64,000 nt of DNA from an uncultured Phycisphaerales bacterium (GTDB lineage Bacteria > Planctomycetota > Phycisphaerae > Tepidisphaerales > Tepidisphaeraceae), in the NCBI GenBank assembly GCA_963758525.1, contig CAVWVQ010000003.1, positions 4,256,001 through 4,320,000 of the forward strand. The letters run 5' to 3'. This document shows, piece by piece, positions 42,072 through 62,525 of the stretch (its first letter is position 1; the number at the start of each line of letters is the position of its first letter). The translations under genes and the position numbers were made by a program. The notes beneath the pieces are model-generated. The model saw nothing but the letters and a program-made list of their open reading frames with translations. It was not told where the DNA came from and made no database searches.

Positions 42072-42835
42072 AGGCTGTTAAGGTGACATCCATCTTTCTT
42101 GACGATGCTCATCCGCTGGATATATCATGCGACCATGCCCCGCACTTCTCGAGCAGCGATCGGCGGTCTGGTTTATCACGTTCTCAACCGCGGCAACGGC
42201 CGGCTGGAGATCTTCCGCAAGCCGGGGGACTTCCTGGCGTTCCTCGATTTGATGGTCGACGCCAAGGAACGGGCGGAGATCGAAGTCTTCGGCTTCTGCC
42301 TGATGTCCAACCACTGGCACATGGTGGTGCGGCCGCGTCGGGATCAGGATCTGGCCAGGTACTTCTCCTGGCTGACCAACACGCACGTCAAGCGTTACCG
42401 TGCTCACTACCGGCGGACCAGCGGCCATCTGTATCAGGGCCGCTACAAAAGCTTTGTCGTCCAGGAGGACGGGCATTTGCTGACGCTGCTGCGTTATGTG
42501 GAAGCCAATCCGTTGCGGGCGAAGATGGTGGAGCGGGCGCAGGACTGGCACTGGTCCAGCCTCGGCTGCGAGAAAGAGCTGGCGCGAAAGCTGCTGGACG
42601 ATTGGCCGATCGACCGTCCCCGGAACTGGACGGCGCTGGTCAACGAGCCGATCGATCCCGCCGCTGTGAAACGAATGGCACTCAGCTTCGAGCGTGGCCG
42701 GCCGCTGGGCAGCGATCCTTGGACGCTTAAAATGGCCGGCCGAATGGGCCTGCAGCACACTCTGAATCCGCGAGGCAGGCCAAAATTGCGGAACGGTGAC
42801 AAATAAAACGATGGATGTCACCTTAACAGCTTCCC
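42072..42835 (+). mobile_element. RAYT cassette copy 2, intact, with 21-bp inverted ends
   Basis: IR at 42074-42094 and 42810-42830 around the transposase ORF. Confidence 0.85.
42135..42806 (+). CDS. REP-associated tyrosine transposase (Y1 HUH, IS200-like)
   Basis: MPRTSR..YHVLNRGN..FCLMSNHWH (HUH)..GHLYQGRYKS..RYVEANP..WSS. Confidence 0.9.
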   Translation: MPRTSRAAIGGLVYHVLNRGNGRLEIFRKPGDFLAFLDLMVDAKERAEIEVFGFCLMSNHWHMVVRPRRDQDLARYFSWLTNTHVKRYRAHYRRTSGHLYQGRYKSFVVQEDGHLLTLLRYVEANPLRAKMVERAQDWHWSSLGCEKELARKLLDDWPIDRPRNWTALVNEPIDPAAVKRMALSFERGRPLGSDPWTLKMAGRMGLQHTLNPRGRPKLRNGDK

Positions 42836-43942: not shown

Positions 43943-44065
43943 AAAACGTCTAACGAAAACGTCTGACGGGACGGGTCCAAATACCGAAACGTCTAACGGG
44001 ACGGAAACGTCTAACGGGACGGGTCCAAATACCGAAAAAAGTCTAACGGGAGGGGTCCAAATACC
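43943..44065 (+). repeat. Array of GAAACGTCTAACGGGACGGGTCCAAATACC units with variable 3' truncation
   Basis: Five head-to-tail units at about 43943, 43955, 43986, 44004 and 44034. Confidence 0.85.
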
Positions 44066-44331
44066 GAGTGACCGATTGACCCGGATTCGGTACCCAACGG
44101 CGTCGCTGATGCGGGGGAAGGTCTCTTTCGTGAATGGCAGTATGGATGGCCCACCGACCAAACCCGGCGTTTCCGGCCTGAACAAGGTATTGACCGGCGC
44201 GGTCGGCATCACCAAGGCGGCGTTGGTGAAGTAGTGGATAATTGATAGTGGCGAATGGATAGCGAACTGCGGGGCGCGGCTTAATTGGTCCGGATGATGA
44301 CGCGTGCGGAAGGTTCTGCGTGGATAACAGA

Positions 44332-44586
44332 ATGGATGGCCCAACGATCAAAGCCGGCGGCTCCGGCCTGAGGAAGGTGGTGACCGGCGCCGTCGGCATC
44401 ACCAAAGCGGCATTACACGTCGATCGCACCGATGAGGTGTTGATCAGAAAGCGTCGATCTCTCTGTACCGCCTGCCCAAATGCCAACGCTGGCTCGTCGA
44501 AGACCAGCCGATGCGTCGCCTGCTCCTGCTTCATCTGGCCCAAGACCGCCACCGCCTCGGAGAAATGTCCGATTAGTCGATGGTGA
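44332..44586 (+). CDS. Small Cys-rich protein (DUF6171-like)
   Basis: R..CTACP..C.ACSC..K...EKCP..RW; a truncated paralogous start lies at 44142-44234. Confidence 0.55.
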   Translation: MDGPTIKAGGSGLRKVVTGAVGITKAALHVDRTDEVLIRKRRSLCTACPNANAGSSKTSRCVACSCFIWPKTATASEKCPISRW

Positions 44587-45632: not shown

Positions 45633-46334
45633 ATCAGAGTCTCCTCGACCGTTACGGAATCACGAAACGGTATGACGCCCATTCGGCTCCTGCAAGCGGG
45701 GCGTTGCGACCATCTATCACCGCCTCCGTCGTTCCAAGCGACTGCGGTTGCGGAGAAGCCGGAGGGAGGCTGGACATAGTCGCCGTTGGAACCGGCTGAG
45801 ATCCGGCCCCTGCGGTCCGCGGTGGAACTTCGGATCGTTTGGGCGAATGCAGCCGTCGTCCTCGAGCGCGTACAAAACGCCGGGCTGTCTTTTTGCACCA
45901 CTCCATTCGCGCATTTCTCGCTCGTCCCATAAAAGCATTTCCGCTGCTAGGCAATTCAGCCTCGTTCGCAAACCCAACGGCCCCATAACGTTGCCGCAAA
46001 ATCCGTCGGTTTCGGCTCTAAAGTGAGGGTGTTATCGGGGTCGATGAAAAGCACGTCGGAAAAGGCCGCACAGGCCGCAAGGCCGGCGCAGGCCGTACGG
46101 ACTTGTCGGAAAGGAGCGCGCAAATGAACTGAACGGTCGACGTATCGGCGGCACGCGAGAGCGTCTGGCCGCATCGACCTCAGGCCGCTGGTGTGGCGTC
46201 CCCTGGCACTACCAGCATCGTGCCTCAATTCAAGGGAATGAAAGCGTCCGACGGAACGCAGACCGGAAGACGCAAAACCAAACGGAAGCTTCAACCCCCC
46301 AGCATCAAGCTTCCGTAGTCACGGAGAGACAGTC

Positions 46335-47744
46335 ATGAGCACTATAAACACCAATGTTACGTCGCTCATCGCGCAACGCGCGTTGGCGACGAACAACAAA
46401 AATTTGAATACGAGCCTTGAGCGGCTCAGCACCGGTTTGAAGATCAACAGCGGCGCCGATGATCCGGCAGGACTCATCGCGTCGCAATCCCTCGGCGCCG
46501 AGCAGGTTGGTCTCCAGGCTGCCATCAGCAACGCCACCAGCGCGACGAACGTCATCGGAACGGCCGAAGGTGGTTTGAACGAAGTCAGCAACCTGCTGAC
46601 GCAGCTCAACGGCCTGGTCAACTCCTCAGCCAATACCGGCGGTCTGTCATCAGACGAAATCGCCGCCAATCAGCTGCAGGTCGACTCGATTCTGAGCACG
46701 ATCAACCGTCTGGCAGGGTCCACCACATTCAACGGGAATCACCTTCTTGACGGCACGCTGGACTACACCACCAGCAGCGCCGCCGCGTCGGCCTTCTCAT
46801 CCATTGCGGTGAATCAGGCGACTCTTCCGCAGAACAAGACCGAAAGCGTTGTCGTCAACGTCCTCAACAGTGCCACCGTCGGCAATGTTCTCTTCACGGG
46901 CGCAGCCACCGTCAGCGCCACCACGCTGCAGATTGCGGGCGCCCAGGGCACGCAGCAACTGAGCTTCGGCAGCGGCACCACCGTGGCCCAGATCGCCACC
47001 GCGGTCAACGCCTTGTCCTCGACCACCGGCGTCACTGCCTCAGCCACGGCCGGCAAGCTCAACTTCCTCGCGTCCGCCTCCGGGTCAAAGAACTACGTCT
47101 CGGTCCAGTCCCTGTCCGGCACCTTCGCCATCACCGGCGGAACCAGCGGCAAGGCGTTTGGAAAAGACGCGGTTGTGCAGGTCAACGGAGCCCAGGCTCA
47201 GGCCAACGGCACCGCCGTTCACTACAGCAGCAACAACCTGGATCTGAACTTCACGCTCAGCACCGCGCTCAATGGCGGCAAGAGCAAGACGTTTGGAATC
47301 ACCGGCGGCGGGGCGACGTTTGCGCTCGGCGCAACGGTTTCCGACAGCACCAACGCGAGCATCGGCATCAAGTCGGTGTCCACCGGAAGCCTCGGCGACG
47401 GCACCACCGGGTTCCTCAACACCCTGGGCTCGGGCGGCACGAACTCCCTGAGTGCCACCAGTCTGGTCAACGCGCAGAAGATCGTGACCAACGCGATCAG
47501 TCAGGTCGCTTCGCTTCGCGGTCGGCTCGGCGCGTTCCAGGACTTCACGATCGGTTCGACGATCAACAGCCTCAACGTCGCGTATGAAAACGCGTCGTCG
47601 GCCAAGAGCGCCATTACCGATACCGACTTCGCCGCGGAAACCGCCAATCTGACCCGCAATCAGATTCTTTCTCAGGCAGCCACCAGCGTGCTGTCACAGG
47701 CCAACGCGGCCCCTCAATTGGCCCTCAAGCTTCTCGGAGCATAA
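46335..47744 (+). CDS. fliC: Second flagellin
   Basis: MSTINTNVTSL..RLSTGLKINSGADDPAGL; DTDFAAETANLTRNQIL. Confidence 0.96.
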   Translation: MSTINTNVTSLIAQRALATNNKNLNTSLERLSTGLKINSGADDPAGLIASQSLGAEQVGLQAAISNATSATNVIGTAEGGLNEVSNLLTQLNGLVNSSANTGGLSSDEIAANQLQVDSILSTINRLAGSTTFNGNHLLDGTLDYTTSSAAASAFSSIAVNQATLPQNKTESVVVNVLNSATVGNVLFTGAATVSATTLQIAGAQGTQQLSFGSGTTVAQIATAVNALSSTTGVTASATAGKLNFLASASGSKNYVSVQSLSGTFAITGGTSGKAFGKDAVVQVNGAQAQANGTAVHYSSNNLDLNFTLSTALNGGKSKTFGITGGGATFALGATVSDSTNASIGIKSVSTGSLGDGTTGFLNTLGSGGTNSLSATSLVNAQKIVTNAISQVASLRGRLGAFQDFTIGSTINSLNVAYENASSAKSAITDTDFAAETANLTRNQILSQAATSVLSQANAAPQLALKLLGA

Positions 47745-47812
47745 GAGGGCCCTACCCGAGACTCGTGAGGGATTGAGCTGACCCCCGAGTTTCACTTTTC
47801 CGACAAGTCCAA

Positions 47813-47849
47813 CCACCCCCGGTCCTGCGACCGGGGGTGGATTTTTTTT
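47813..47849 (+). terminator. Intrinsic terminator after the second flagellin
   Basis: ccacccccggtc-ctgc-gaccgggggtgg-a-tttttttt. Confidence 0.85.
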
Positions 47850-47906
47850 GGCGCGACGGGTTGTCGCCAATCAGTCCAAATACTTTGGAAGCCCGCGGGG
47901 CGCCCC

Positions 47907-47963
47907 GTAGCACAGCCGTCTCGGCTGTGACGCCAAAGCCACAGCCGAGACGGCTGTGCTACA
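47907..47963. repeat. Second GTAG-family REP doublet
   Basis: GTAGCACAGCCGTCTCGGCTGTG...CACAGCCGAGACGGCTGTGCTAC. Confidence 0.85.
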
Positions 47964-47990
47964 TTCCGCCTCTCAAACGCGTGAAGAGTT

Positions 47991-48254
47991 TTACCTTCCG
48001 CCTGCCCCGGCCGCGCCGCTGCTGCCGCCGCCGACGGCACCGTTGCCGGTTCCAGCGGTTCCGGTTCCTCCGGAACCAATGTCGGGGGCCCGCGTCGGGT
48101 TGTCTGTCCTCTGGTCCGAGTAGCCGCTCGGGGTAGCTCCGGTACCCGTCGGGTTTCCATTGCCGCTGCCTCCGTTGGCACAGCCGGCCAATGCGATAAC
48201 TCCTGCTAGGGACCCGACTACGCAAAATGATCTGATCAGAATTGAGCTGCGCAT
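47991..48254 (-). CDS. Small Gly-rich lipoprotein
   Basis: Signal peptide with lipobox LAGC and a low-complexity tail. Confidence 0.55.
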   Translation of the reverse strand: MRSSILIRSFCVVGSLAGVIALAGCANGGSGNGNPTGTGATPSGYSDQRTDNPTRAPDIGSGGTGTAGTGNGAVGGGSSGAAGAGGR

Positions 48255-48401
48255 GGTTTCTCCAAAGTTCTTGGCTGCTTTGATCCACTGGGGAACTGCC
48301 CAACGCATGCTCATGTTCAGCAAACCGAAAGCCTGACGGCGAACGCCGCTCCGATCGCCGGGCGGACCGCCCGCGGATTATCCTAACATATACCGTACAA
48401 A

Positions 48402-48641
48402 ATGCGGCAGCTTCAGGGTAAGGTGCGCTGCATGGATACGGCAGGCCTGACCTCCGAACAGCGCGATCGTTTGAAGCGAACGATTATTCTGCAACGCGAC
48501 GCGTTGTGGAGGATCCACAAACGTATGGAGGCAGTCGGCTGGTTTACAGACGATCCGCTCTATCAGGCCGTCCTTGCCGCATATCACGCGCTGCACGCGA
48601 CTGTCAACGTCATCACCGCCGCGTCCAAACGCCCGCGTTAG
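48402..48641 (+). CDS. Small hypothetical protein with upstream candidate LexA box
   Basis: 79 aa helical ORF; CCTAACatataCCGTAC at 48382-48398. Confidence 0.55.
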   Translation: MRQLQGKVRCMDTAGLTSEQRDRLKRTIILQRDALWRIHKRMEAVGWFTDDPLYQAVLAAYHALHATVNVITAASKRPR

Positions 48642-49018
48642 AGAAATCCGGTTTGGCTGTTCTGCGAATCCGCTTTGTCCAGGGGGGCGGCATCCTTCCC
48701 CGGGCTCCTTCTTACTAAACGACCGCGCGCGATCCCGCCGGGTCCGCGGGTCCCTAGAAAGCAGAACACGAATTGACACGAATGTCGCACGAATCCTCAC
48801 GAAGCAGGCTTCCCGCGTTTATTCGTGATATTCGTGCTTCATTCGTGCTGATTCGTATTCCCTCTTCCTGGGTTCGCGCGGCACTTGGCAGATGGACAGC
48901 GCGTGTTCGCGGACGGGCATTTAGAAAAAAAAAGCCGCTCTGGGCAAGAATTTTATTTTGTGCTTGACACGGTATCGCCAGTTGCGTTTTGGCCAAAACT
49001 GTGGCAAGAACTGACGAC

Positions 49019-49222
49019 TCAATTTTCGTCCCTAATTGCTTTGATTTCCGTTTCGATAGCGGTCAATTCACCTTCGGTCATGCGGTGATTTTTCCGCTCT
49101 GCCAATTTCGGCACTCCCCTGTAGACACCGAGATAAAATTGTTCTTCGGTGAATGCTCCGATTTTCTTTTCGATGATCCCCTTCGCTTCCCCCAGCGTAA
49201 ATCTGTTTCTCGCCTTTTTCAT
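49019..49222 (-). CDS. Small hypothetical protein
   Basis: 67 aa ORF MKKARNRFTLGEAKGII with SD-like AAGGGA. Confidence 0.5.
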   Translation of the reverse strand: MKKARNRFTLGEAKGIIEKKIGAFTEEQFYLGVYRGVPKLAERKNHRMTEGELTAIETEIKAIRDEN

Positions 49223-49799
49223 CTTGTTCCCTTTCCGTCGGCCTGCATGGCGGCGATGGTCATTTCTTCGTCGGCGGCGTTCAGTGTTGCGGCAAACTCT
49301 GCCATTCGCTGGTCTTCGGCCATACTGGTGAGCGTCGCTGCCAGTTGCGCGTTCCGCACGATCCACGCGGAGAAAACCCGTAGTGCATCGAACTGGTTCC
49401 TACCTCAAATACTTTCGCCGAATAATCTGTAGCGGCGTCATCGTCCCGACACATCGATTGCGGCCAATTATCTGGGGGATCGGCAAAAAAGGAAATCCAC
49501 ATCTTCGCGCGCGGTTAAAAATCGTAATTGCCGAAAATATTCAGGGTTACGGCGGTTCCTCTCCGTGCTAATTCCTGCGGAGTTGCACAGAAGGGCTTGT
49601 TTTGTAGGTTCAAAATAAAATGTTGCGCACAGAAGGCTTGTTTTCTACGTCTGCGGGAATGCTCTTGGGGTGCCCCGCGGAGTGACTGGCCGGGGTGTCT
49701 CGCCTCGGTGCGTCGGCCCCGCCAGCGTTGCGGTTTCCCGGCCCCACACCGCGAAACGATTGGATACTTGGGTCGTTTGTGCGATTGGATACTTCGCGA

Positions 49800-50180
49800 T
49801 CATGCGCCGGTGGCGGGCTCGTCGGGGATTTGCTTTTTTAATCCGTGGCACACGGGGCATTCCAAGTCGTTTCGGCCCGTTGCCCCTCGGTTCCCATAGC
49901 TCTTTGGTGGTGGTGAACCCGTGCCCCCGCAAGCGGGGCAATTTGGCAATGATGGGTCCACAGTTCCAGCGGCAACCACCTTGTCAATTGCGATTTTTGC
50001 TTCCGCAAGGGTCTGCGCCGTGGGAATCTGGATCAGGTATCGCGTCCGTCCACGGGCTGGCCGGATAATTCTGAATACCGTTCTAGGCTGCCCGCTTTCA
50101 CCTGCTTCGGGTGTCTCCCGTACTTGCTGAATGAAGTAGCCGTTGTGCTCAATCTGCTTGCCGATATTCTCTGTTTTCAT
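49800..50180 (-). CDS. Small protein with DnaJ-type zinc-finger motifs
   Basis: CPACGGTG ... CPVCHG. Confidence 0.55.
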   Translation of the reverse strand: MKTENIGKQIEHNGYFIQQVRETPEAGESGQPRTVFRIIRPARGRTRYLIQIPTAQTLAEAKIAIDKVVAAGTVDPSLPNCPACGGTGSPPPKSYGNRGATGRNDLECPVCHGLKKQIPDEPATGA

Positions 50181-50444
50181 TCTGCAAAGCTTATGCGTCC
50201 GCAAGGCCGATGCCCAGCCCCTAAAAGACTCACCGGGGGCCGGTTTCAGTCCTGAACGGGGCGCAAACGGCACTGTATTTCCGGTCCGGGTTGTCGGCGT
50301 CAATCGATTTGGCTACGCGCTGCTCGCCGTGGGTGGCAGCCGCGCCTGCTCGCTGCTTCAACAGCGTATTCAGCCTTCTTCCGCGAAATTTGACAGTAGA
50401 GTAGCCCACAAGATACTAGACGATCACAACGAAGGGATCGACCC

Positions 50445-51677
50445 ATGAACCGCAATGCATTCGCTGGGATCGTGGCACTTCTGCTTGTTCTGGCTTGGCC
50501 AAACCTACAGCCCACCTACGCCGGAGACGACGACAAACAGATCGTTGACTCGTTTAAGGCGTTCGTTCCAAAATTCATTGAGGGCTGGAAAAAGCATAGT
50601 ATTGATGTCTACAAAACTCCCGCTGTAGTCACGCACATTCGATTCGACGTAAAAAAAACGGACAGTGCGGTGAATCCGCTTGTGGGCGTGTTGGAATGGT
50701 GGCAGCCGAGCGCTACCGGGAAGTGCGACGACGAAAACCACGACGACCGGTCTCTAACCATACAAATCAGCGACGGGAAATGGGTGGTCACCGAGGCTAT
50801 TCTCACGATTCATATTTCCGGATTTCCACCGATGCATTTAGACCCGCCCGATGCTGAAACCGACACGATGAAAGAGGTTGCCGCAGACGTGCAGAAAATC
50901 GAGGAACCAGTCTCAGGAGGGGAGACGAAGGTTTCCGAAGACGATGAAGCGGCGTTTCAACGGTATCGTAAGGCGGCAGAGGCTGGGACTGCAGTGGGAA
51001 TGTATAATCTCGCAGGGCTGTACGACCTCGGTAAGTATGTAGGCCGGAATGATGCAGAAGCTGTTAAATGGTATCGCAAGGCATCAGATGCCGGCCTGGC
51101 AGTAGCGATGAACGCCATGGGCCGCATGTACCAGCTCGGCAGGGGTGTTCCTCAGAATGATGCAGAAGCTGTTAAATGGTATCGCAAGGCATCAGATGCC
51201 GGCCTGACAGTCGCGATGAACGCCATGGGCTGCATGTACCAACTCGGCAAGGGTGTTCCCCAAGACCATGGCGAGGCGTTAAAATGGTATCGCAAGGCAG
51301 TGGACGCCGGGGACGCGGACGCAATGGTAAACGTGGGTGTCATGTATGAAGACGGCTATGGCGTCGAAAAGAACGATGCGGAGGCGGTTGCGTGGTATCG
51401 TAAGGGAGCGGAAGCCGGAAGCGTTGGGGGGATGAATATCCTCGGACTGTGGTACCGGAACGGAAGAGTTTTGGCCCACGACGACGGCGAGGCAGTGAAA
51501 TGGTTCCGTAGTGCAGCAGTTGCTGGCAACGCGGACGCAATGAATAACTTGGGCTTCATGTACGCCACAGGCCATGGCGTGGTGCAGGATCAAAATCAGG
51601 CCGAAGTGTGGTTTCGCAAGGCCGCCGCGGCCGGAAACGAAATCGCAAAGGCTAATCTGTTGAAATTGGGGCGTTAG
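50445..51677 (+). CDS. Secreted SEL1-like repeat protein
   Basis: Signal peptide; about six A..NLG.MY..G.GV..D...A..WYRKAA repeats. Confidence 0.9.
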   Translation: MNRNAFAGIVALLLVLAWPNLQPTYAGDDDKQIVDSFKAFVPKFIEGWKKHSIDVYKTPAVVTHIRFDVKKTDSAVNPLVGVLEWWQPSATGKCDDENHDDRSLTIQISDGKWVVTEAILTIHISGFPPMHLDPPDAETDTMKEVAADVQKIEEPVSGGETKVSEDDEAAFQRYRKAAEAGTAVGMYNLAGLYDLGKYVGRNDAEAVKWYRKASDAGLAVAMNAMGRMYQLGRGVPQNDAEAVKWYRKASDAGLTVAMNAMGCMYQLGKGVPQDHGEALKWYRKAVDAGDADAMVNVGVMYEDGYGVEKNDAEAVAWYRKGAEAGSVGGMNILGLWYRNGRVLAHDDGEAVKWFRSAAVAGNADAMNNLGFMYATGHGVVQDQNQAEVWFRKAAAAGNEIAKANLLKLGR

Positions 51678-51701
51678 CTGCGAGCATGGTAACGTGGGGG
51701 A

Positions 51702-51914
51702 ATGGAATGCACGATGACGTTCCGCGTTAGCGATCAGGAGAAGCTCGACAAGGTTGTAGGCCGACTCTTGGATCACGCTGTCAATAGTGGCCATATGCCG
51801 GCGGGTGAAGCCAAGGAGATAATGGAAAAGCTGCTGGGTGAAATTGATACTTTGACCGATCCCGAAGTTGCGTTCATTCTTAATGGGGACCAAGGGGAAC
51901 AACCAGTGGTGTAG
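51702..51914 (+). CDS. Small hypothetical protein
   Basis: 70 aa acidic helical ORF. Confidence 0.45.
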   Translation: MECTMTFRVSDQEKLDKVVGRLLDHAVNSGHMPAGEAKEIMEKLLGEIDTLTDPEVAFILNGDQGEQPVV

Positions 51915-52035
51915 AACGTCACGGCCAATCCGCCTTCTCACCAGTTCCCGAAATTCTTCATCGGACATGTTCTGCAAGGCGCGAACCGCCCGCTCACGAG
52001 TTTAATTTGTGGCGATTCAGCAGTAGAATGATGCC

Positions 52036-52251
52036 GTGCCGAAAAAGACGATCAAAGTGGGCGATACGGTTATTCATGCTGAGAGTCACTATCGGGGAGT
52101 GGTCACAGCGGTTCATTCAAACGACACGATTAGCATCCGGCGCAGCGCCGGAATAACGACCTGGCGCAAAAGCGACGTTCATGCGATCGCTACCGCCGGT
52201 GTGGTATCCACGAAAAAGAAGAGGAGCCCAAAGAAGACCAAAAGCGGCTAA
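52036..52251 (+). CDS. Small basic protein, SH3/KOW-like
   Basis: IKVGDTV..YRGVVTAV..TISIR; Lys-rich tail. Confidence 0.45.
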   Translation: MPKKTIKVGDTVIHAESHYRGVVTAVHSNDTISIRRSAGITTWRKSDVHAIATAGVVSTKKKRSPKKTKSG

Positions 52252-52855
52252 GGCAGGCGACAGGTGGCGAAAACCTTCTCCCTTTTTGCGTAAAGACGAA
52301 ACGCAATTCCTTCCCGTCGCCCATTGGGCTGGGGCCGAGCTTTTCGACCGGCTCTCGTGTCCCACTGCGGGATCGCGCCAGTGACGGGATGGCGTTGGCA
52401 GCGCCCACGTTCGCTTCCCTCGCCGCGGCTCGGTTTCATCTGCTACGGCATCATCACGCGCGCAGCTACGGCGGCGGATCGTCACGGCATGATGCAAGAG
52501 ATAATCTCCTGGCGGGGCAAATAAATCTGGCGGCCGAATTTGTTCGGCCTGGGGGGCTTACGTCGCGTATGTCGCGTATAATGCTTCTGGTTCTTTTGGC
52601 GTCGGCTCCGCGCGTCGCGTTGTCCTGCCACAGAACGGCAAGGAGGTTTTATGAAGATCATGTTAGTCGGCGGGTCATTTGATGGCGAAATAGATTTGCC
52701 TGACTCAACAACCGTGGCACAGCTTCCCGATGTTCTTGTGTGCCGCTCAACTCTGGACTTTCCACACAACAACATTGAAATGCGGCGGGAAGAATATAAG
52801 TTGCATGATCCCCGCTCCACGCCAGCTATTTACAAGCATTAAGAGAGTCAGCAAC

Positions 52856-53893
52856 ATGAAATTCCGAAGGCAACCTGGACCTGCGTGTCTCGTGGCTGTA
52901 TTCATCGCGCTCATAATCATCTCAGGCTGCAAGAGCGAAGAAGAAAAGGCGCGAAAAGCAAGAGTCGTGCGCGAGGGGCGAGATTCGGCGTACGCTAAAG
53001 TCGTGGACCTGATAGAAAAGGGTGACCAAGCTGAGAGTGCCGGTGAACATCAATCCGCTATCGACAGCTACTTGTCCGCCGAGGACGCGGCGGAGGACCA
53101 AACGAGACAAAATGGTGATGCGAGATTTGCCGCTAAGTATGAAGAGGCTCGTCAGAAGTCTGACAAGGCACGTTCCGCCGACACAGCGGCGCTTGATAAA
53201 AAGCAAGAGCTTGAGCGTCTCCAGCAACTGCAATTTGCTCAGTCCGAACGGATCAAACGTGAGGCCAATGAAAGCCAAAGCGCGGACATTTTTACTGCCG
53301 CCCGCCAAGGCTATAGGGAACGCATTGAAGAACTGCTAATGGTCAGGCCAGAGTTGGTCAACGAGGAAGAGAACGGAGAAACACCTCTGTTCGAGGCGCA
53401 CACGAAAGAAACTGCCGAGCTGTTAATCAAACACGGCGCAAATGTCAAATTCGGTTCGGGTTTTAATAGAACGCCACTTCACGCGGCAGCCGAAAACGGC
53501 TGCGTTGACGTTGCAGAGGTTCTATTGCAACATGGTGCCGACGTAAATGCGCAATACGTCTACGGAACGCCTTTGCGCGCTGTGTTCCCCATCATGATTT
53601 GCGATTGGGCGCGACTGTCTCACGATGAACACGTGATATCGGACCAGCAACGTGCGATGTGCAGATTCCTTGTGGCTCACGGCGCTGATGTCAACGCCGA
53701 GTGTCGGTCGGAGACGTTGCTACATGAATTTGCATCAAGCAGCCGACCCCCTGAAGGATATGAAATCGATCTTGATTCTGTCCAATTCATCGTTTCGCTC
53801 GGGCCGTCGCCTTCCGTAATTGATGAGGCATATCGGCAAGCGGTGGTTGATGGAAATCAAGATATTGCCGACCTGCTTCGCGCGAAGAAGTAA
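52856..53893 (+). CDS. Lipoprotein with coiled-coil and ankyrin repeats
   Basis: Lipobox ISGC; GETPL, RTPLHAAAENG..VAEVLLQHGADVNA, GADVNA. Confidence 0.85.
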   Translation: MKFRRQPGPACLVAVFIALIIISGCKSEEEKARKARVVREGRDSAYAKVVDLIEKGDQAESAGEHQSAIDSYLSAEDAAEDQTRQNGDARFAAKYEEARQKSDKARSADTAALDKKQELERLQQLQFAQSERIKREANESQSADIFTAARQGYRERIEELLMVRPELVNEEENGETPLFEAHTKETAELLIKHGANVKFGSGFNRTPLHAAAENGCVDVAEVLLQHGADVNAQYVYGTPLRAVFPIMICDWARLSHDEHVISDQQRAMCRFLVAHGADVNAECRSETLLHEFASSSRPPEGYEIDLDSVQFIVSLGPSPSVIDEAYRQAVVDGNQDIADLLRAKK

Positions 53894-54722
53894 TTGCGGT
53901 ATCGTCCGACGGGTGGCGCTTTCGTCTTGCTGCGCCCGCATCATCCGCCCTCCCCTTGCGGCCGTGCCCCGTGGTTCCACGGCCACCTTTGGCCCACGGA
54001 CCCCGCGAGTCCAGTTGAGTCAAGAAACTCCTCAATCTTCAAAAAATGGTCAAAAAACGTGGAAAACGGCGGTCGGTCTTTCGGGGGAAAAAGTTGTAGA
54101 TATTTCGACTACCCCTTGGGGTCAACGGCGCTGGTGTGGTGAATGATCGGCGCGCGGTCCCTCGGATTTCCCTGGCTCGCGTCGCCCCCGAATTTGGGGA
54201 CACTTCACACAATGATTGCGAGTCGTCTTCTGGGGTCCGCGAAGCCAGTTCCCTTTTAGGATTTTCTACGGAAAAAATGCGCAAGATGGCGTGCGGTCGG
54301 TTGCGGTGTGTCATTTTCCTATTTCACCTCCCCCCTGGTGGTTGGATGCCACGCGGCGTTCTGTGCCTCGCCGGCGAAGCGGGTAGGTGTGGTGCCCGTC
54401 TACTGCGGTGGTGCAGTCGCGGCGGTGGGGACGACGTGGGAGCGAGTGAGGCAAGAACGGAATCGGCGAAACGAGCGTGAAACGGTGGTGAAAGCGGGTC
54501 GAAACCGGGGTGAATCGGGGGTGAAGCTCGGTCGAAACCGGGGTGAAGATGGGGCGAAATGGTGGTGGAAGTGGGGTGCCTGTTTCCGCCATCCACCGAG
54601 AGAGTCACCAGCGTTCACTTGCGGGCGCGCGCAATTATGTCGTGCCGATGGATTCGGCCCGACAGGGGGCGGGTGATTTCATTCCTACTCCCCCTGTAGG
54701 AGCGAATGTTCGTAAACCCTTG

Positions 54723-57386
54723 TCAATACTCATTTCCCTTTCCCACCGTCCCCCCTCTTTTCTCAAAAACACCCCCGACGGTGGGAACCGTGGAGGCTAC
54801 TTTTTCATAACGGAGGGGCCTCAATTTATCATCAGCCATGTGAGTATGAACCCGCGAAATGCCCTGGGGGGCGAATTTCTCAAACCACTTCGCCGGCTCC
54901 CCATGATCGACTTTCTTACGATTGCGGCGGTGCTCAAAGTCTTTGTTATCCATCATCGGGAAGTGGGTGTTATTGTATCGCGCCTCATGCTCAGCGGCGG
55001 GGACATCATCTCCTCGGCGCAGGTGCCGTAGATTCTCATAGCCATTGCTATTTTGGATGATCTGGTACTTTCCCACCTTGAGAAGTCCCCCCTTTGAGTA
55101 CGTCATTGACTCGGGAAACACGTCGGACCCGTCGAGGATACGATCTAAGAGAGTGTAAGAGGGATGCGTTTTCCTATCCCGGTTCGTTTTCCCTTCCTTG
55201 CCCCGCAGGGCATACACTGGCCCCTCTGTTGATATATTCAGGGCGTAGTCTGATTTCGACCAATAGGCAGCGCTCGCGAATGAGTTCCTTGCTTTATGTT
55301 CCAATTGAAACTCCAGCTTCAACCCATAGGGTTTCCAGAAATCATCAACGTGCATCATCGCCAATTCATCGACATTGGACGGTGGGTTGAGGCAGTCACC
55401 CTCATCCCACGCCTGCCCCCTCATGCCCGTGTAGCCTCGTTGTTGATTCTTCGCATCCCTCCATTCCCATTGCCGGCTCAGGATGTCCAAGCCCGGCTTT
55501 TTTCCCCGCCAATAGCACACTTTGCCCGGAGTGTAGATGCCGCCATCGGTGATACATTGACGGAGTCCAAGCGCCTTGGCCAGCATCCATACCCCAACTC
55601 GGGCCTTGGCGGTTATCACATTGCCCATGATGGAATTGCCAACGGAGAAATAGCGGGAAGCAAAGTCACCGTAGAGCGTATTCACGATCAGCTTCAACAT
55701 CGAATCCAGCCCGGCATACCGCACTCGTTCATCCTCAGAGACCGTCTTATCCTTTCCACGGTGCTTGTACTCCCGGCGACGATCTACCAATCGACCGATG
55801 AACCCTTCCAGCGGCACCCCGTACCATGCTCGCGAGCGACTGTCCCACGAATCTCCATTCTTTCGCGTCCCATATGAACCGTTGTGCCTCAGAACATCCT
55901 CGGACCACTCTTTCACACCCGCACGCCGATCGGACTTGAGATAGGCTGCGGCGGTCACAATCTCAAGGTTTTTAATCCCCGCCCATTCGGAATTGGAGCA
56001 TACTGCTCTCAATACTTTGAGAACGTCGGACGTGATGACGCCGTTCTCTATCTGCTTTCGAAGCATTACAAAATCACTGTTCACGTCGGATTCATCGTCA
56101 ACGGCAACGTTGCGGATGATGTCGCCAACCTTGGCCAGTTTGGAAAAGATCAAGTCTTGCTGATACTCCAACAGGCCCGATACGGTCGCACACCAGAAGC
56201 CGTCAATCAATTCATCCTGAAAACGGTCGAGCCACTTTCCGAAAGTTATCGGTTCATCATTCGGCGATCTGCTGAATGAATACGGTAGTCCTACCGGATA
56301 GATCAAGCCCCGCAGACTGGAACCATAGCATCCGGCAATATCAACATCCAAGCCTGGCCCCGCCCTGTATTCAAATGGGTTCTCATTCAAGCATCGCCCA
56401 CCTTGAACAAGTGCGTTGTAAACGCGCGACTCTGTAGACGGGCGTGATCTCCACCAGCGTATACCTGAGCCGTCAAGAGCGGTGAACATGAATCGTGCGT
56501 CGTCCATGAACCAGTTGAAGTCTTCGCCAACGTCACTGAGCGATTCCATCGTCTTGTACCTCTTTGTGGCACTGATGAAGGCCCATTGATCCTTCTTGTG
56601 TGCGCGCGCGTCGGGGTCGAGTATGCCCAGTTTGCGCACGCAGAACTTCATGGCCACTTCATCCGGTCCAGCCTGTGAGTAAAGCCATCGCTCGAAAGTC
56701 TTGGCCACCAACGATCCCACGGTCATCGGGATGTCATCTTCGGTCCACACTGTCTCGCCCATTCCAAGGCATTCACGTTGAACCGTATTGAAGAGAGAGA
56801 TAAATTCACGATGAACCTGGAGGAGCACGCGGGCATCGTCAATCGCGTATCTCAGCCATTCCTCGGGGGATTCCATCAGCCCAGTCCACATACAGGATTT
56901 GTATTTGTCCATGCTGCTCTTGTTCACCATTGGAATGCCAAGGGCTTCGGCGAATTTCACCAGTTTCGTTTTTCCGGCCCATCCAACGATGTCCTTCAAG
57001 TGAACACAATCGACGTTCCCGGAAAGATTGTTTCGTTGGCGGATGTCGCCGGCCTCGATAGCGGCTTTCCATCTCTCCCATCCGATGGCATATTCAACGT
57101 CTTTCGGTGTGAAGAACATTAGTAGACGGCACGGCCCTTCCCAATAGCGACCCAGCAGATTCGTAGTGTCATCGCGACTAGTATAGATGAGAGTGGCATC
57201 ATTTTCGTGTGCGGTCATGTTCAGGCGTGCCCGTATATATTCTGGAACATCATCCCGCATGAATACGGTGGTGCCATGTTCTGCGGATGCGAACGCCGTG
57301 CTTATCCATGGATCGGATAAGGATGTATCCCATTCGCTATCGGTGGCGATAAACGGCCCCTTCGATTTCCTCTTCTTCTTTACCAT
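54723..57386 (-). CDS. polB: Family B DNA polymerase, piPolB-like
   Basis: Exo DSEW / LKD / YAIDDA; QGGR; motif A DVDIAGCYG; motif B RR..K..LKLIVNTLYG; ITAKAR; motif C CITDG; LEHK; ALRG. Confidence 0.85.
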   Translation of the reverse strand: MVKKKRKSKGPFIATDSEWDTSLSDPWISTAFASAEHGTTVFMRDDVPEYIRARLNMTAHENDATLIYTSRDDTTNLLGRYWEGPCRLLMFFTPKDVEYAIGWERWKAAIEAGDIRQRNNLSGNVDCVHLKDIVGWAGKTKLVKFAEALGIPMVNKSSMDKYKSCMWTGLMESPEEWLRYAIDDARVLLQVHREFISLFNTVQRECLGMGETVWTEDDIPMTVGSLVAKTFERWLYSQAGPDEVAMKFCVRKLGILDPDARAHKKDQWAFISATKRYKTMESLSDVGEDFNWFMDDARFMFTALDGSGIRWWRSRPSTESRVYNALVQGGRCLNENPFEYRAGPGLDVDIAGCYGSSLRGLIYPVGLPYSFSRSPNDEPITFGKWLDRFQDELIDGFWCATVSGLLEYQQDLIFSKLAKVGDIIRNVAVDDESDVNSDFVMLRKQIENGVITSDVLKVLRAVCSNSEWAGIKNLEIVTAAAYLKSDRRAGVKEWSEDVLRHNGSYGTRKNGDSWDSRSRAWYGVPLEGFIGRLVDRRREYKHRGKDKTVSEDERVRYAGLDSMLKLIVNTLYGDFASRYFSVGNSIMGNVITAKARVGVWMLAKALGLRQCITDGGIYTPGKVCYWRGKKPGLDILSRQWEWRDAKNQQRGYTGMRGQAWDEGDCLNPPSNVDELAMMHVDDFWKPYGLKLEFQLEHKARNSFASAAYWSKSDYALNISTEGPVYALRGKEGKTNRDRKTHPSYTLLDRILDGSDVFPESMTYSKGGLLKVGKYQIIQNSNGYENLRHLRRGDDVPAAEHEARYNNTHFPMMDNKDFEHRRNRKKVDHGEPAKWFEKFAPQGISRVHTHMADDKLRPLRYEKVASTVPTVGGVFEKRGGTVGKGNEY

Positions 57387-57676
57387 AACGAATCCCCCTG
57401 GTACTTTGCACAATAGAAAAACCCAGCGGGTAGACCGTTGGGTTCTTCAATAGCTGGGATTCGTTCGGCGATGTGCCTATGTATTATTATCGTCCAATAG
57501 AGAATCTTCCTGTACGTCCCAGCTATGGTTCGTCAACGGGTCGTCCCGATAATATGTAATCGTCACTTTATGAAAACGTCAATAGCAATGTCATAAAGAT
57601 TAACGTTGTCAAGACATAGTTTCAGTATGCCGCCATGAAAGGCAAAACCCCGCTGGAGGTCGCGGGGGGTGTGGGG

Positions 57677-58042
57677 TCATTTTGTTATTATGTTTTCGGG
57701 GGCGTCCGACTGCTCGGGGAAAAACCTGGTTAGTTGCCGCGCCGACTTTAGAAAAGCTTCCTCGTTGTCGTAAGCGTTGCAAAGGAATATGTATTCAGCG
57801 GGCGGATTGGCTACTAACTTGAATCCGTTGTTTTGCAAAAGCAGCCGGATATGGGGGTTGTCCGCCTTTACCAGCAGAGAGACCATCCAGTACAAGGTCG
57901 GCTTATTGGCGTAGACCGGAAAGGTTATGCGGTATTTCCTTTGTTCGGTCAGCGCATCCGCAGACATTTCAAGCAACTGCTCCAAAAATGCTGGCTCGAT
58001 ACGAGAAGCCAGCCCGTTAAGTATGCGTTCGACAGTTTTCAT
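57677..58042 (-). CDS. Hypothetical protein
   Basis: 121 aa ORF between int and polB on the same strand. Confidence 0.5.
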   Translation of the reverse strand: MKTVERILNGLASRIEPAFLEQLLEMSADALTEQRKYRITFPVYANKPTLYWMVSLLVKADNPHIRLLLQNNGFKLVANPPAEYIFLCNAYDNEEAFLKSARQLTRFFPEQSDAPENIITK

Positions 58043-58146
58043 AAACTGTGTGCAGGGGTATTTTGGTCAGTGAGAACCGATTCCCCTATACGTGCGACTC
58101 AAGGGCAGGGAAACCACTTACCGCCTTCCCTCCTGTTGGTGCAACG

Positions 58147-58180
58147 AAAAGGCACGTATGCCATTTTGGCATACGTGCCT
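58147..58180 (-). terminator. Perfect 14-bp hairpin downstream of integrase
   Basis: aggcacgtatgcca-ttt-tggcatacgtgcct with a short T-tract on the minus strand. Confidence 0.65.
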
Positions 58181-58207
58181 ATATGGAGTGATGATCTGGC
58201 CAGCGGA

Positions 58208-59581
58208 TCACGCGGCGCTGCTCGTGGCGGCGGTGGCGGCGCTCGGGAAGTAATGACGATGCACGGCGTCACAAGCGGGGCGGACGATCTCGGGGTTTCT
58301 CAGAACGTAGTGGTCCTGCATCCCGCAAGCGTGCCCGGCAAGAATCTTCGGAAGTCGGGCGTCGGTGGTCCCCTGGCAAGCGGCGGTGTACGCTCCATCG
58401 CGCAGGTGACTGAATGAAACTTCAGGGCATCCTGCGGCCTTGGCCAGCTCGTGGAAACTCGCGGCCCTGGTGGTGGCGGAAGCGTAGCGTGTGCCATTCC
58501 TGCTGGCGAAAAGGTACTTCTCGTTGGGGCGCAGGGCACGGATGGCGGTGGTGGTCTCGGGCCATAACGTCGCGGCCCTGGGGATACGCTTGCGCTCCGT
58601 CTTCGCTCGGATCATCGCCAGTGCGCCGGCCTCAAGGTTCACGGTTTTGCGGGGCAACGGGCACAGCTCGCCCAGCGTCATGGCGGTATTCAAGCCGAAA
58701 AGAATCCACGCCCGCCACTCTGCTGATGCCACGCTCAGAATCCTGTGAAGGTTTTCTCGGCTGATAGGTTTCGGATCGACGGCGGGGGCGGCCTGTTCGG
58801 TCCAGAGAAGTTTCAAGCGGTCCAGCGTCGTGGTTATCTCCGTGGCGTTACTGGTGGGGTCTTTCTTCCCGAACGAAATCACGGCTTTGATCTTGGAGTA
58901 CATGAAAATCTTCGTGCCCGCGCTGGTGTATTTCGGATCGGACTCGACGGCGGTTCTGTAGGTATGAATCACTTCGTTAGTGAGGTCCGCCAACGTCTTC
59001 GCGCCCGTCATCGCGATGAAGCCGCTGAACACCCGCGTCGCTGCCGATTTATCTTTCGACGGGTTGGCGGTCTGATAGAATTTCAGGATCGCGGCCAGCT
59101 TGATCGACGGGCCGGCGGGGGCGAAATCCTTGTAGCGGGCAATCTCGGGTAGTCCAGTCATCCTGGCGACGTACTCGGGGCGTGTCAGAAGCATTTCGCG
59201 GACGTGATGCCACAAGGTCCACTCGTCCACCCGCTGGCCTACTTGAACCGGGCGCTCCTCGTTGGGTTGGATCGTAATCTCTTGCAGCGCGGTTCCAGCC
59301 TGCACGGCTTGGGTGAAGTCGTCGATTGCGCGGAGGGTGGGGGCGTATCCGTTAGCCTCGGCAACGGGGCGTCTGATGGTGATGATGTTCCCGGTGGGGG
59401 CGTGGTCCCGTTCCCATTCACGGAAGCGGTTCACGGCACGGCGTTCATCGGTCTCCGAGAATCGGAAGCCAGTGGCCACGATGCGCCAGCGGCCATCGTG
59501 TGACTGTTTGGCGAGTCCTGGTATGATTTCGCCCCATGTTGTCTGATACGGTTTCTGCTTGCGTCCGGTCTTCATGTTCAT
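58208..59581 (-). CDS. int: Tyrosine recombinase/integrase
   Basis: LNTAM.LGEL, RAKT, FSHLR, LAGH, DHY in tyrosine-recombinase order; adjacent to att. Confidence 0.85.
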   Translation of the reverse strand: MNMKTGRKQKPYQTTWGEIIPGLAKQSHDGRWRIVATGFRFSETDERRAVNRFREWERDHAPTGNIITIRRPVAEANGYAPTLRAIDDFTQAVQAGTALQEITIQPNEERPVQVGQRVDEWTLWHHVREMLLTRPEYVARMTGLPEIARYKDFAPAGPSIKLAAILKFYQTANPSKDKSAATRVFSGFIAMTGAKTLADLTNEVIHTYRTAVESDPKYTSAGTKIFMYSKIKAVISFGKKDPTSNATEITTTLDRLKLLWTEQAAPAVDPKPISRENLHRILSVASAEWRAWILFGLNTAMTLGELCPLPRKTVNLEAGALAMIRAKTERKRIPRAATLWPETTTAIRALRPNEKYLFASRNGTRYASATTRAASFHELAKAAGCPEVSFSHLRDGAYTAACQGTTDARLPKILAGHACGMQDHYVLRNPEIVRPACDAVHRHYFPSAATAATSSAA

Positions 59582-59727
59582 GCCTCGGCGGTAAGCGGGT
59601 CAACGGATCGGCCTTACACGCGGGGCATTATCAGGGCACTTCGGTTTTTGCTGGTTTTGCTTGGCAAAAACCTTGGCAAAAACTCAAAAACACCGTTCAT
59701 AAGTCGTTATTTGACAAGGGGCGCAAT

Positions 59728-59825
59728 AAAAAAGCCGCTCTGGGCAAGAGCGGCTTCGAATGGGGCTGTTGAAGAGTTCTTCGGGTTGTGGGAGGAAAAA
59801 CTCTTCACATCGGGGGGAAGAATGG
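59728..59825 (-). ncRNA. Putative small RNA (integration target)
   Basis: TACAAT -10 at 59836-59831, hairpin gaagagtt/aactcttc, terminator aagccgctct/agagcggctt plus U-tract; no convincing ORF. Confidence 0.4.
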
Positions 59826-60168
59826 GCAAATTGTAAAAGTGTCCAAATACCTGCTTCGAAGCAGTCAGTCGGACGAGAAACTATTCAACAACGCTTGTGC
59901 CATCATTGTGCCTGAGGCTTCGATCTGCGGTGGCACCGGATATAAAAACTTACCGCCCAATTATTTATGTGAATTCGCATCGCAGCTAAGATTCTGTCAC
60001 CCCCAGCAAGTGCCACAAACCGCCACGACACGATGGCTGGAATGTCGCAGTGAAACGCGACAGCGTCGTTCGGCGGGCCCATGTTTAGCGGCGACAGCGT
60101 GATAACTGGTCGGACGAGCCGCGATCTGCTATGTTTTTCGGTAGTCCTCCCACTCATTCCACGCTGAG

Positions 60169-61086
60169 GTGATCGTGCGCGTACTTGTGACCGGCGGAGC
60201 GGGGTTTGTCGGCTCTAACATTGCCAAGCGGTGCGTCGCCGACGGATACGCGGTGACTGTTCTCGATGACTTTTCGTCCGGTGAATGGCGGAACCTCATT
60301 GAGTTCCAGGGGGATGTCCTGACCCTCGATCTGGCTGGGAATGTCGGCGCGCTCGCCTCGGCCCAGCCGTTCCAATTGATCTTTCATCAGGCGTCGATCA
60401 CCGACACCACGGTGATGGATCAGCGCAGGATGATGCACAACAATTTGGAAGGGTTTCGCCAACTCCTTGACCTGGCGGTGAAATGGCAGAGCCGCGTCGT
60501 CTGGGCGAGCAGCGCAGCCACCTATGGCAGGGGGGCATCGCCCAACCGGGAGTCGCAGCCGCCCGCTCCGCTGAATGTCTACGGCTTCTCGAAGTTGGCA
60601 ATGGAGCGCTTGTCGCAGCACTACGAGACACGGCTCAAGCACCCGATCGTTGGCCTGCGGTACTTCAACGTGTATGGGGCCGGCGAAGCCCACAAGGGCA
60701 AATTCGCGAGCATGATCCATCAACTGGCCAAGCAGATGCGCGCTGGCAAGCGGCCGAGAATTTTCACCGATGGGGAGCAGAAGCGAGACTTCGTGTACAT
60801 CGACGATGTCATCCACGCCAACCTCGCCGCCGCACAAACCAATGATAGCGGCATCTACAACATCGGGAGCGGCGCGGCCGCGAGTTTCAATGAGGTAGTG
60901 AAGGAATTGAATCGCGTGTTGAACACTGACTTGCCGCCGGAATACTTTCCCAATCCATACGACTTCTTTCAAACCTGGACGGAAGCCGAGCTGAGCCACG
61001 CACGCGAAGGGCTTTGTTACGATCCGAAGTTCGACCTCACAAAGGGGATCGATGCGTACCATGCATCCGGAGCGCTGGGGATCTAA
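60169..61086 (+). CDS. hldD: ADP-L-glycero-D-manno-heptose 6-epimerase
   Basis: TGGAGFVGSN, ASSAATYG, PLNVYGFSK, GLRYFNVYG..E.HKG..ASM, RDFVYIDDV. Confidence 0.85.
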   Translation: MIVRVLVTGGAGFVGSNIAKRCVADGYAVTVLDDFSSGEWRNLIEFQGDVLTLDLAGNVGALASAQPFQLIFHQASITDTTVMDQRRMMHNNLEGFRQLLDLAVKWQSRVVWASSAATYGRGASPNRESQPPAPLNVYGFSKLAMERLSQHYETRLKHPIVGLRYFNVYGAGEAHKGKFASMIHQLAKQMRAGKRPRIFTDGEQKRDFVYIDDVIHANLAAAQTNDSGIYNIGSGAAASFNEVVKELNRVLNTDLPPEYFPNPYDFFQTWTEAELSHAREGLCYDPKFDLTKGIDAYHASGALGI

Positions 61087-61234
61087 GGCGATGAAGACGG
61101 GGTCTTCATTGGCAGCACGAAAAGTGGGGCCCCGGAAAAGCAGCACACCCACGTCGGCATCGTGCCGGTGAAAATCAGCGCCCGCTCTAAAGCGGTGTCT
61201 GCAACGCACGTTTCACAATTTACACTTCACCAGC

Positions 61235-61263
61235 TTGAGTTAGGATGATGTTAGGAATATCCT
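61235..61263 (+). promoter_or_regulatory. Promoter with candidate LexA box
   Basis: TTGAGT-17bp-TATCCT overlapped by GTTAGGatgatGTTAGG. Confidence 0.65.
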
Positions 61264-61272
61264 TCGGACGTC

Positions 61273-62525
61273 ATGGGTCTATCCCTCAAGCTCGCAATTT
61301 TGGCCGACGCGGCGAAATACGACGCGTCATGTGCGAGCAGCGGGTCGCTTCGTGCCAACCCCGGGCGAGGCATTGGCAACACCGAGAAAATCGGCATCTG
61401 CCATAGTTATACGCCCGACGGAAGATGCGTTTCGCTGCTGAAGATCCTGCTGACCAACTATTGCATTTACGATTGCCGATATTGCATCAATCGCGCCTCC
61501 AGCGACACGCCACGAGCGCGCTTCACGCCGGAGGAAGTGGTCCGGCTCACTCTCGAATTCTACCGTCGCAACTATATCGAGGGGTTGTTCCTCAGCTCGG
61601 GCATCATCCAATCGCCCGACTACACGATGGAGCAACTGGTGCGCGTCGCACAACTCCTCCGGGAGGTGCACGAGTTTTTCGGCTACATCCACCTGAAGGC
61701 CGTGCCGGGTGCGTCGCCGGCATTGCTCGCGCAGGCGGGGAAATACGCCGATCGACTCAGCACCAACGTCGAGTTGCCCACGGATGCTGATCTGGCCAGG
61801 CTCGCGCCGGAGAAGAAGCCGATCGAAATTCAGTCGGCCATGGCACAGATTCGGGATGGTGTTGCCGCATCGAAGGAGGAGCGGGCAAGTGACAGCCGCG
61901 CGCCCGGGTTCGCGCCGGCGGGCCAGAGCACGCAACTGATTGTGGGCGCTACGCCGAGCACCGATGCCACCATTCTTGCGACCGCCTCGCAGCTCTATCG
62001 TCGTCAGCAGTTGCGGCGGGTTTATTACTCTGCGTACAGCCCGATTCCGCGATCGGACGACCGACTGCCTGCGCAGTCTCCCCCGCTGCGCGCGAGCATC
62101 GCCTTTATCAGGCCGATTGGCTCATTCGCTTCTACGGCTTTTCGAGCTCCGAGTTAACGACGGCTGGCGAGCCGAACCTCGACTTGTCGATCGATCCGAA
62201 GCTCGCCTGGGCGCTGCGGCATCGCGAGTTTTTCCCGCTCGACATCAACAAAGCCTCCCGCTCCGCGCTCCAACGCATTCCCGGGCTGGGCGTGCGGAAC
62301 GTCGAGCGTATCTTGAGCTCCCGACGATTCCGCGCTGTGCGGCTGGGGGATTTGCAGCGCCTCGGCGTCTCCCTGAAGAAGCTACGGCCGTTTGTGCTTT
62401 GCGCCGATCACAACCCGGATGCGGCGATGATCGATCGCATCGATTTGCGCAATCGCGTTACGTCGGCACATCAGCAGTTGGAGCTGTTTCAGACACGCGT
62501 CGCTGTTACGAGTGGTGAGTTATGA
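61273..62525 (+). CDS. Putative DNA modification/repair radical SAM protein with HhH (frameshift near 62090)
   Basis: KLAILADAAKYDASC, GICHSYTPDGRC, CIYDCRYC, GQSTQ, DPKLAWAL, RIPGLG. Confidence 0.9.

Follow-up and report, generated by a model that had tools for sequence, protein, structure and literature searches.

We identified a family B DNA polymerase (PolB) of the PolB_SITDG group in an uncultured Phycisphaerales bacterium, encoded on an integrase-bearing element bounded by direct repeats, and propose that it is the likely replicase of this element and that, with about even confidence, it can be predicted to start DNA synthesis de novo as the primer-independent polymerases (piPolBs) do. 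The two parts of this proposal differ in strength. Judging from sequence, the replicase role is very probable; de novo priming, which is argued by analogy with the piPolBs, could go either way. The window referred to below is the whole 64,000-nucleotide stretch of DNA that was analysed, and coordinates are window positions unless otherwise stated.

The polymerase gene (polB) occupies positions 54723 to 57386 on the minus strand, and forms one uninterrupted frame of 887 amino acids (57386 to 54723) with AGGGGG 8 nucleotides ahead of its ATG. The protein has an N-terminal 3'-5' exonuclease of the DEDD type followed by palm motifs A (DVDIAGCYG, residues 347–355), B (KLIVNTLYG, residues 565–573) and C (QCITDGG, residues 610–616); the PolB order and fold of these elements place it among family B DNA polymerases. 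It also carries an insert of about 170 amino acids at the TPR1 position and has no TPR2. Residue conservation was counted in 173 full-length relatives. The palm residues D349, Y354, G573, D614 and G615 are present in all 173, and K565, N569 and T613 in 172 each. The exonuclease residues are nearly as constant (D16 in 166, E18 in 164, D96 in 166, and both Y180 and D184 in 173). The position of the first motif-C aspartate is occupied by isoleucine in 159 relatives, valine in 12 and alanine in 2, and never by threonine. The palm and exonuclease motifs are conserved family traits, reflecting neither chance nor decay. An earlier note on this DNA, made from the sequence alone, had described the exonuclease motifs and motif B as intact and motif C as CITDG, and these counts bear out both readings. 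Its reading of motif A as DxDIAGCYG is likewise real and conserved, and this 'non-canonical' motif is itself piPolB-like, piPolBs having a motif A of the same kind (DYDLAGAYT in Escherichia coli, DYDLSGCYG in Helicobacter suis). The Pfam model DNA_pol_B_2 matches the query with an E-value of 0.0067, which is under the cut-off and, taken alone, weak library evidence. A PDB sequence search with the single query protein gave zero matches, and the best PDB sequence matches come from the fingers helices (Pol alpha, E 4e-5). An ordinary phage polymerase was considered and set aside, as tblastn found no match in 50,697 phage records.

PolB_SITDG was named by Kazlauskas et al. 2020 (PMC7544198) for a cluster of ten sequences from cyanobacteria, algae and the liverwort Marchantia. 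That work tied the cluster distantly to the RNA-primed main cluster, rather than to the protein-primed polymerases (pPolBs) plus piPolBs, and omitted it from the phylogeny; its text on the group and Table S2 give neither genomic context nor mechanism. We assign the query to this group because one homolog, P0050 (36% identity, 97% coverage, E 3.9e-161), is the Table S2 entry A0A2I8A685 of Nostoc CENA543, as judged by organism, length and, by eye, the first ~400 residues. The query also has the hydrophobic residue in place of the first motif-C aspartate (xITDG) that is the hallmark of the group, and falls in one clade with the listed Nostoc member in our tree. The proteins of two other loci (L004 and L011) have N-termini corresponding to two further listed entries (PMC7544198). 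We found 57 homologs at 28–60% identity, all unnamed or called hypothetical, and a profile built from 47 homologs retrieved 1,471 clusters at E≤0.001, the weak tail of which may include other PolBs, and 734 at 1e-30 from 1.84 billion representatives. Compared with the ten-sequence cluster of 2020, the group thus now comprises 1,471 clusters with members in Planctomycetota, piPolBs as nearest kin and a mobile-element context. The name of the group was already known, but the literature searched had nothing on its size, its kinship to piPolBs, its lack of TPR2 or its occurrence on minimal replicons. Title searches, with most subscription papers outside their scope, found no further literature on the group or its plasmids. 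The main text of PMC11551731 contains neither 'cyanobacteri' nor 'planctomyce', and nothing on cyanobacterial or planctomycete hosts was found in the available sections of PMC10079941.

An AlphaFold2 model (mean pLDDT 90.9, pTM 0.89) predicts that the polymerase folds as a complete exonuclease-plus-polymerase PolB. In structural comparison of the whole model (VIA wide), the top Z score belongs to Sulfolobus B1 (Z 12.9, rmsd 6.9, 418 residues aligned). The Z score of phi29 polymerase is practically the same (Z 12.8, rmsd 4.1, 485 of 571 aligned), and judged by rmsd this enzyme is the best whole-chain fit. The other top matches are viral PolBs of both primer types. A comparison of the predicted structure with phi29 polymerase had been suggested when the sequence was first read, and it does recover a PolB fold with that enzyme among the top matches. 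The A-to-B insert lies between motif A and the fingers and folds alone with a pLDDT of 91. Its profile weakly matches pPolB TPR1 (E 0.054, better than all 10 shuffles) and does not match the corresponding piPolB segment (E 0.31); folded alone, it gives a best VIA Z of 2.8 and a best Foldseek E of 0.13, with TPR1 absent among the matches listed. The whole A-to-B stretch spans 216–281 amino acids in PolB_SITDG versus 136–178 in piPolBs. The absence of TPR2 is seen in the spacing between motifs B and C, which is 49 in 156 of the 173 relatives, 50 in 2 and unmeasurable in 15, as against 60–74 in the correctly measured piPolBs, 75–90 in phi29 and PRD1, and 54–63 in Pol II and T4. The Staphylococcus epidermidis reference has its motif C at 759. 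Opposite E. coli piPolB there is an 18-residue gap between motifs B and C.

By sequence comparison, the nearest characterised relatives of PolB_SITDG are the piPolBs. We located E. coli piPolB through the coordinates in the supplement of PMC5695915 and added further references, giving 8 piPolBs, 12 pPolBs and 5 RNA/DNA-primed polymerases (rPolBs, a shallow set) for profile comparison; one partial piPolB (L104) was excluded, and searches for more diverse piPolBs yielded little. A profile of the 173-sequence family scores all 8 piPolBs at 10.8–59.1 bits and all 17 pPolBs and rPolBs at 9.1 bits or less. In hhalign, the family aligns colinearly with the piPolBs over residues 12–821 (Prob 98.8, E 6.6e-17), compared with E-values of 3.4e-4 against the 12 pPolBs and 2e-5 against the 5 rPolBs. 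A tree was built from anchored segments (47 rows, 251 columns), with the motif-A tail and motif-C columns removed and with only 8 piPolBs, 7 pPolBs and 3 rPolBs as references; rows P0158 and L143 were dropped because they had no anchors, and row P0054 is mis-anchored at motif A. In this tree PolB_SITDG (100/97) and piPolBs (100/97) are reciprocally monophyletic and join as sisters (96/92). However, AU tests fail to reject a grouping of PolB_SITDG with rPolBs (p 0.24) or with pPolBs (p 0.054). The two groups are therefore likely to be sisters, a placement that is favoured rather than proven. The proposal in the earlier note of a polymerase near the piPolBs but in a distinct clade agrees with these scores and this topology. 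The alternative raised there, that the protein clusters with ordinary PolBs, is disfavoured by profiles and tree but not rejected by the AU tests.

The same note had treated the protein as a candidate primer-independent polymerase; membership of the piPolBs proper is not supported by the published hallmarks. These are TPR2, SxTTDG and a KH-x8-KTRG sequence in place of KxY (PMC5695915), and the query has none of them and lies outside the piPolB clade. Loss of the first motif-C aspartate, which the note took as a marker of priming, is insufficient alone, since archaeal pPolBs also vary at this position (PMC5695915). One piPolB reference (Fusobacterium) itself departs from SxTTDG, reading VVTDG. 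De novo priming of DNA by piPolBs has been tied to Lys613 of KH-x8-KTRG (PMC5695915). At the priming-strand position PolB_SITDG reads E-H-K followed by KxxY, where E. coli piPolB reads K-H-E. The position of Lys613 is glutamate in 152 of 173 relatives, while K698 is present in 172. Because K698 lies two residues further on, it is on the same face of the strand as the Lys613 position, and could take the role of that lysine. Most relatives also keep the KxxY that resembles the primer-dependent PolBs (K711 in 137 and Y714 in 163 of 173).

PolB_SITDG resembles the piPolBs, and its elements resemble the pipolins that carry them (PMC5695915; PMC11551731). The two enzymes have in common a TDG motif C, a motif A of the type DxDLxG[AC]Y and a colinear arrangement of exonuclease and palm; the two kinds of element share a tyrosine integrase, direct repeats, plasmid forms that are circular, members in organelles and the lack of a primase. 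In contrast, PolB_SITDG has ITDG rather than TTDG, E-H-K...KxxY rather than KH-x8-KTRG, a longer A-to-B insert, no TPR2 and a separate clade. The polymerase thus resembles that of pipolins in context, yet the published hallmarks place it outside the piPolBs. With the protein-primed PolBs (phi29, PRD1, Bam35-like) it shares an exonuclease at the extreme N-terminus, an insert between motif A and the fingers, and a good whole-chain fit, but it lacks their DTDS and SLYP motifs and TPR2 and matches their profile weakly, and its element has neither a terminal protein nor inverted terminal repeats. The RNA/DNA-primed PolBs (Pol II, T4 gp43, Pol alpha, archaeal B1/B3) share with it the short B-to-C spacing and the fingers-helix PDB matches; unlike them, PolB_SITDG has no N-terminal domain, a large A-to-B insert, other motifs A and C, and no primase, clamp or helicase neighbours.

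The polymerase gene lies within an element of 10,822 bp (48928 to 59749) that is bounded by perfect 22-bp direct repeats, the likely attL (48928 to 48949, plus strand) and attR (59728 to 59749, plus strand), the latter inside a terminator hairpin. This is the only exact repeat of at least 12 nucleotides between positions 46000–54700 and 57400–62000, and it occurs in two copies in the 6.47-Mb genome. The element has a GC content of 54.7%, compared with 58.6% and 59.3% in its flanks. Adjoining the right repeat is a gene for a 457-amino acid tyrosine integrase (58208 to 59581, minus strand; Pfam PF00589 E 3.6e-6, just above the cut-off; phrog_216 E 1.1e-7), and between it and polB is an ORF of 121 amino acids with no family match (57677 to 58042, minus strand). 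Cargo consists of genes for an ankyrin-repeat protein (52730 to 53893, plus strand) and a Sel1-repeat protein with a hydrophobic N-terminus (50445 to 51677, plus strand). Within the right end, a 12-bp sequence is repeated in tandem (59660 to 59683, plus strand); this repeat and its look-alikes found by eye at 48990–49011 may represent integrase arm sites. Immediately downstream of polB, a tandem array of degenerate 11-bp units (54463 to 54578) is, as a guess, a candidate origin region. No primase, helicase, Rep or terminal protein was recognisable in the element with Pfam, or with PHROGs and NCBIfam applied to 26 ORFs of the window including polB. As in pipolins, tyrosine integrase and att-type direct repeats occur here and a circular plasmid form occurs in relatives, and no primase gene was recognised in the element. 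A scan of 332 neighbour ORFs of relatives likewise yielded neither a primase nor a Rep family, with a D5_N-domain gene at one locus (L011) as an exception to weigh. The element carries no virus-specific genes, whereas five relatives (L010, L013, L014, L092 and L093) have adjacent terminase or tail genes. A screen of 400 further genomes from the phylum did not find the polymerase gene in any of them.

Other repeats were noted in the window. An inverted repeat at 47981/59790 was at first considered as the element end and then abandoned in favour of the 22-bp direct repeat. A dispersed repeat of about 200 bp (48715–48925), with more than 15 copies in the genome, ends just outside the left att repeat, and a perfect hairpin with 23-bp arms (47903–47963) recurs at dozens of genome sites and is REP/MITE-like. 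Two related small elements in a flagellar region (36553–37180 and 42070–42835) have 28–29-bp terminal inverted repeats and are IS/MITE-like. Near 44 kb there is a short tandem array (43953–44069) and a duplicated 96-nucleotide coding stretch (44129–44414).

The host target of integration is likely the terminator of a conserved putative small RNA of about 110 nucleotides (59726 to 59840, minus strand), rather than a tRNA as in pipolins. The predicted RNA consists of a long stem-loop with a C-rich loop and C-rich flanks, and an intrinsic terminator. Matches were found at the loci of six of eight relatives (78–92% identity), upstream of an epimerase gene in four and elsewhere in two, and the similarity ends at the terminator. 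In an alignment of seven sequences, 6 of 24 consensus pairs show compensatory change, including changes in the terminator. There was no Rfam match at E≤1. A tRNA target was rejected, as no tRNA lies within the window and a tmRNA (contig position 4321607) lies just past it; likewise, none of 24 related loci has att repeats of at least 14 nucleotides at tRNAs within the stretches covered. Elsewhere in the genome we observed an array of about 15 tRNA genes (contig C3, 3764011–3766477) and five close tRNA-Ser(gga) calls (4444824–4445528).

The replicons of relatives are often far smaller. The query matches 8 cyanobacterial plasmid records, and a plasmid member used as query matches 10; by comparison, E. 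coli piPolB matches 47 plasmid records, none of them cyanobacterial. Among the 8 there are four complete circles, 4,576–5,943 bp in size; no replicon type is listed for them, and the polymerase fills half to two-thirds of their length. One TnpB aside, their other ORFs encode at most 145 amino acids. The short ORFs of the minimal plasmids match no Pfam family, although an ORF of about 90–100 amino acids recurs on small plasmids. The polymerases of these named plasmids form a subclade separate from the query. Terminal direct repeats, which from assembler behaviour we take to mark circular assemblies, occur in 14 of 75 loci; 12 of these are 4.6–6.2 kb with no other ORF above 221 amino acids, and many of the small circles among the 12 are near kin. 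The polymerase of the 4.6-kb locus L020 shares 36% identity with the query across its length.

Other relatives reside in larger elements. A scan of gene content at 14 genome or viral loci (covering 146 of the 157 ORFs listed and 4 more) found an integrase or serine recombinase near polB in 8 of them. P-loop ATPases occur at four loci (L022, L057, L072 and L090), and at L011 the D5_N-domain gene lies about 2 kb upstream of polB. A ResT/TelK protelomerase is encoded beside the polymerase at seven loci (L029, L038, L051, L056, L057, L092 and L093). L057 has terminal inverted repeats, and L072 and L073 represent one mirrored contig, which suggests hairpin-ended linear elements, two of them with terminase genes. 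In Cyanobacteria the polymerase also occurs in larger prophage-like regions (L007, L010, L013 and L014) with terminase, tail sheath or tube, or many small phage-type ORFs. Two loci (L026 and L034) are in plastid genomes; the L026 polymerase is apparently truncated and lies beside a serine resolvase between psbB and clpP. A 12.6-kb contig (L053) has two similar polymerase modules in tandem and may be a cointegrate formed from two small plasmids. Truncated or split copies also occur (L005 and L006). Tandem arrays occur in several elements, with no common unit, and no origin repeat is shared across them.

The gene content of the minimal plasmids is a better argument for primer independence than motif C. 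Several tiny cyanobacterial plasmids have no large native gene besides that of the polymerase and no recognisable primase, so the enzyme likely copies these elements, possibly primer-free. In the Phycisphaerales element, recombination between the 22-bp repeats by the integrase would excise a circle of 10,800 bp. No primase, Rep or terminal protein is recognisable on this circle, as on the minimal plasmids, so once the template is unwound the polymerase itself would synthesise a short DNA primer, and Lys698 may here stand in for Lys613 of piPolB. The conserved residues and modelled fold of the enzyme predict that it would both polymerise and proofread. Given the absence of TPR2, processivity may come from host helicase and SSB, or from the long insert and the C-terminal region.

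Several observations weigh against de novo priming, namely the absence of KH-x8-KTRG and TPR2, the AU tests, the D5_N gene, the four loci with P-loop ATPases, the separate subclade of the minimal plasmids, the near kinship of many small circles, and the fact that host primers can be borrowed. The strongest rival, which we consider possible but rather unlikely, is that the replicase needs a host primer (made by DnaG or, at the origin, provided by an R-loop or a transcript of RNA polymerase), that priming arose only in the piPolB branch, and that the TDG motif and motif A reflect ancestry common with piPolBs. The missing hallmarks, the retained KxxY, the rPolB-like short B-to-C spacing and the AU tests are consistent with such dependence, and host-primed plasmid replication is common. 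However, the nearest relatives prime de novo, and elements with no primase are found integrated, as circles and with protelomerases, in distant hosts and in plastids, for which a self-sufficient enzyme is the simpler explanation.

Less probable still is that the element itself supplies the 3' end, through a nick, a protelomerase hairpin, or a hydroxyl on the polymerase or a small co-encoded protein. The fit to phi29 polymerase, the insert at the TPR1 position, the seven protelomerase loci and the recurring ~90–100-amino acid ORF would accord with this, but hairpin ends are covalently closed and thus offer no free 3' end. The small plasmids are deposited as circular, the Phycisphaerales element has att-type direct rather than terminal inverted repeats, and neither a nickase nor a terminal protein was recognised. 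Protein priming goes with linear genomes (PMC5695915), and the query shows neither TPR2, nor a DTDS motif, nor a linear genome with terminal protein. Finally, although piPolB raises survival of DNA damage (PMC5695915), pipolins have been described as defence islands (PMC11551731) and some copies are truncated or split, it is very improbable that the polymerase is accessory repair or defence cargo on elements that replicate by unrecognised means or not at all, as it makes up half to two-thirds of 4.6–5.9-kb plasmids with no other candidate replication gene and its exonuclease residues are conserved.

Returning to de novo priming by the replicase, a wider reading can be offered, tentatively and at somewhat less than even confidence. 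PolB_SITDG may be a large sister lineage of the piPolBs that primes de novo without TPR2 or KH-KTRG. It may also be the only replication protein of self-synthesising elements that together form a superfamily not recognised before. Such a superfamily might range from cyanobacterial plasmids of 4.5–6 kb and plastid insertions to integrative islands, prophage-like regions and linear elements with a protelomerase.

This group bears on the standing question of how family B polymerases arrived at a protein primer, an RNA primer or no primer, and no primer-independent PolB group other than the piPolBs was found described in the literature searched. As a probable sister group lacking TPR2, with more than 1,000 clusters, PolB_SITDG can be used to test directly which features are needed for priming and whether priming is ancestral. 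The group also provides a candidate replicase for small cyanobacterial plasmids without a typed replicon, and a source from which unexplained ORFs of plastids and mitochondria may derive. Strand displacement like that of phi29 polymerase, and thus the biotechnological use that the earlier note envisaged, is less expected, since TPR2 is missing. If de novo priming is common to both clades, primer-free synthesis would predate the split of PolB_SITDG and piPolBs, and a one-enzyme replicon could be used as a cyanobacterial or plastid vector. If the primer instead comes from the host, the family would still be plasmid replication proteins of a new class, and would bracket the origin of priming in piPolBs.
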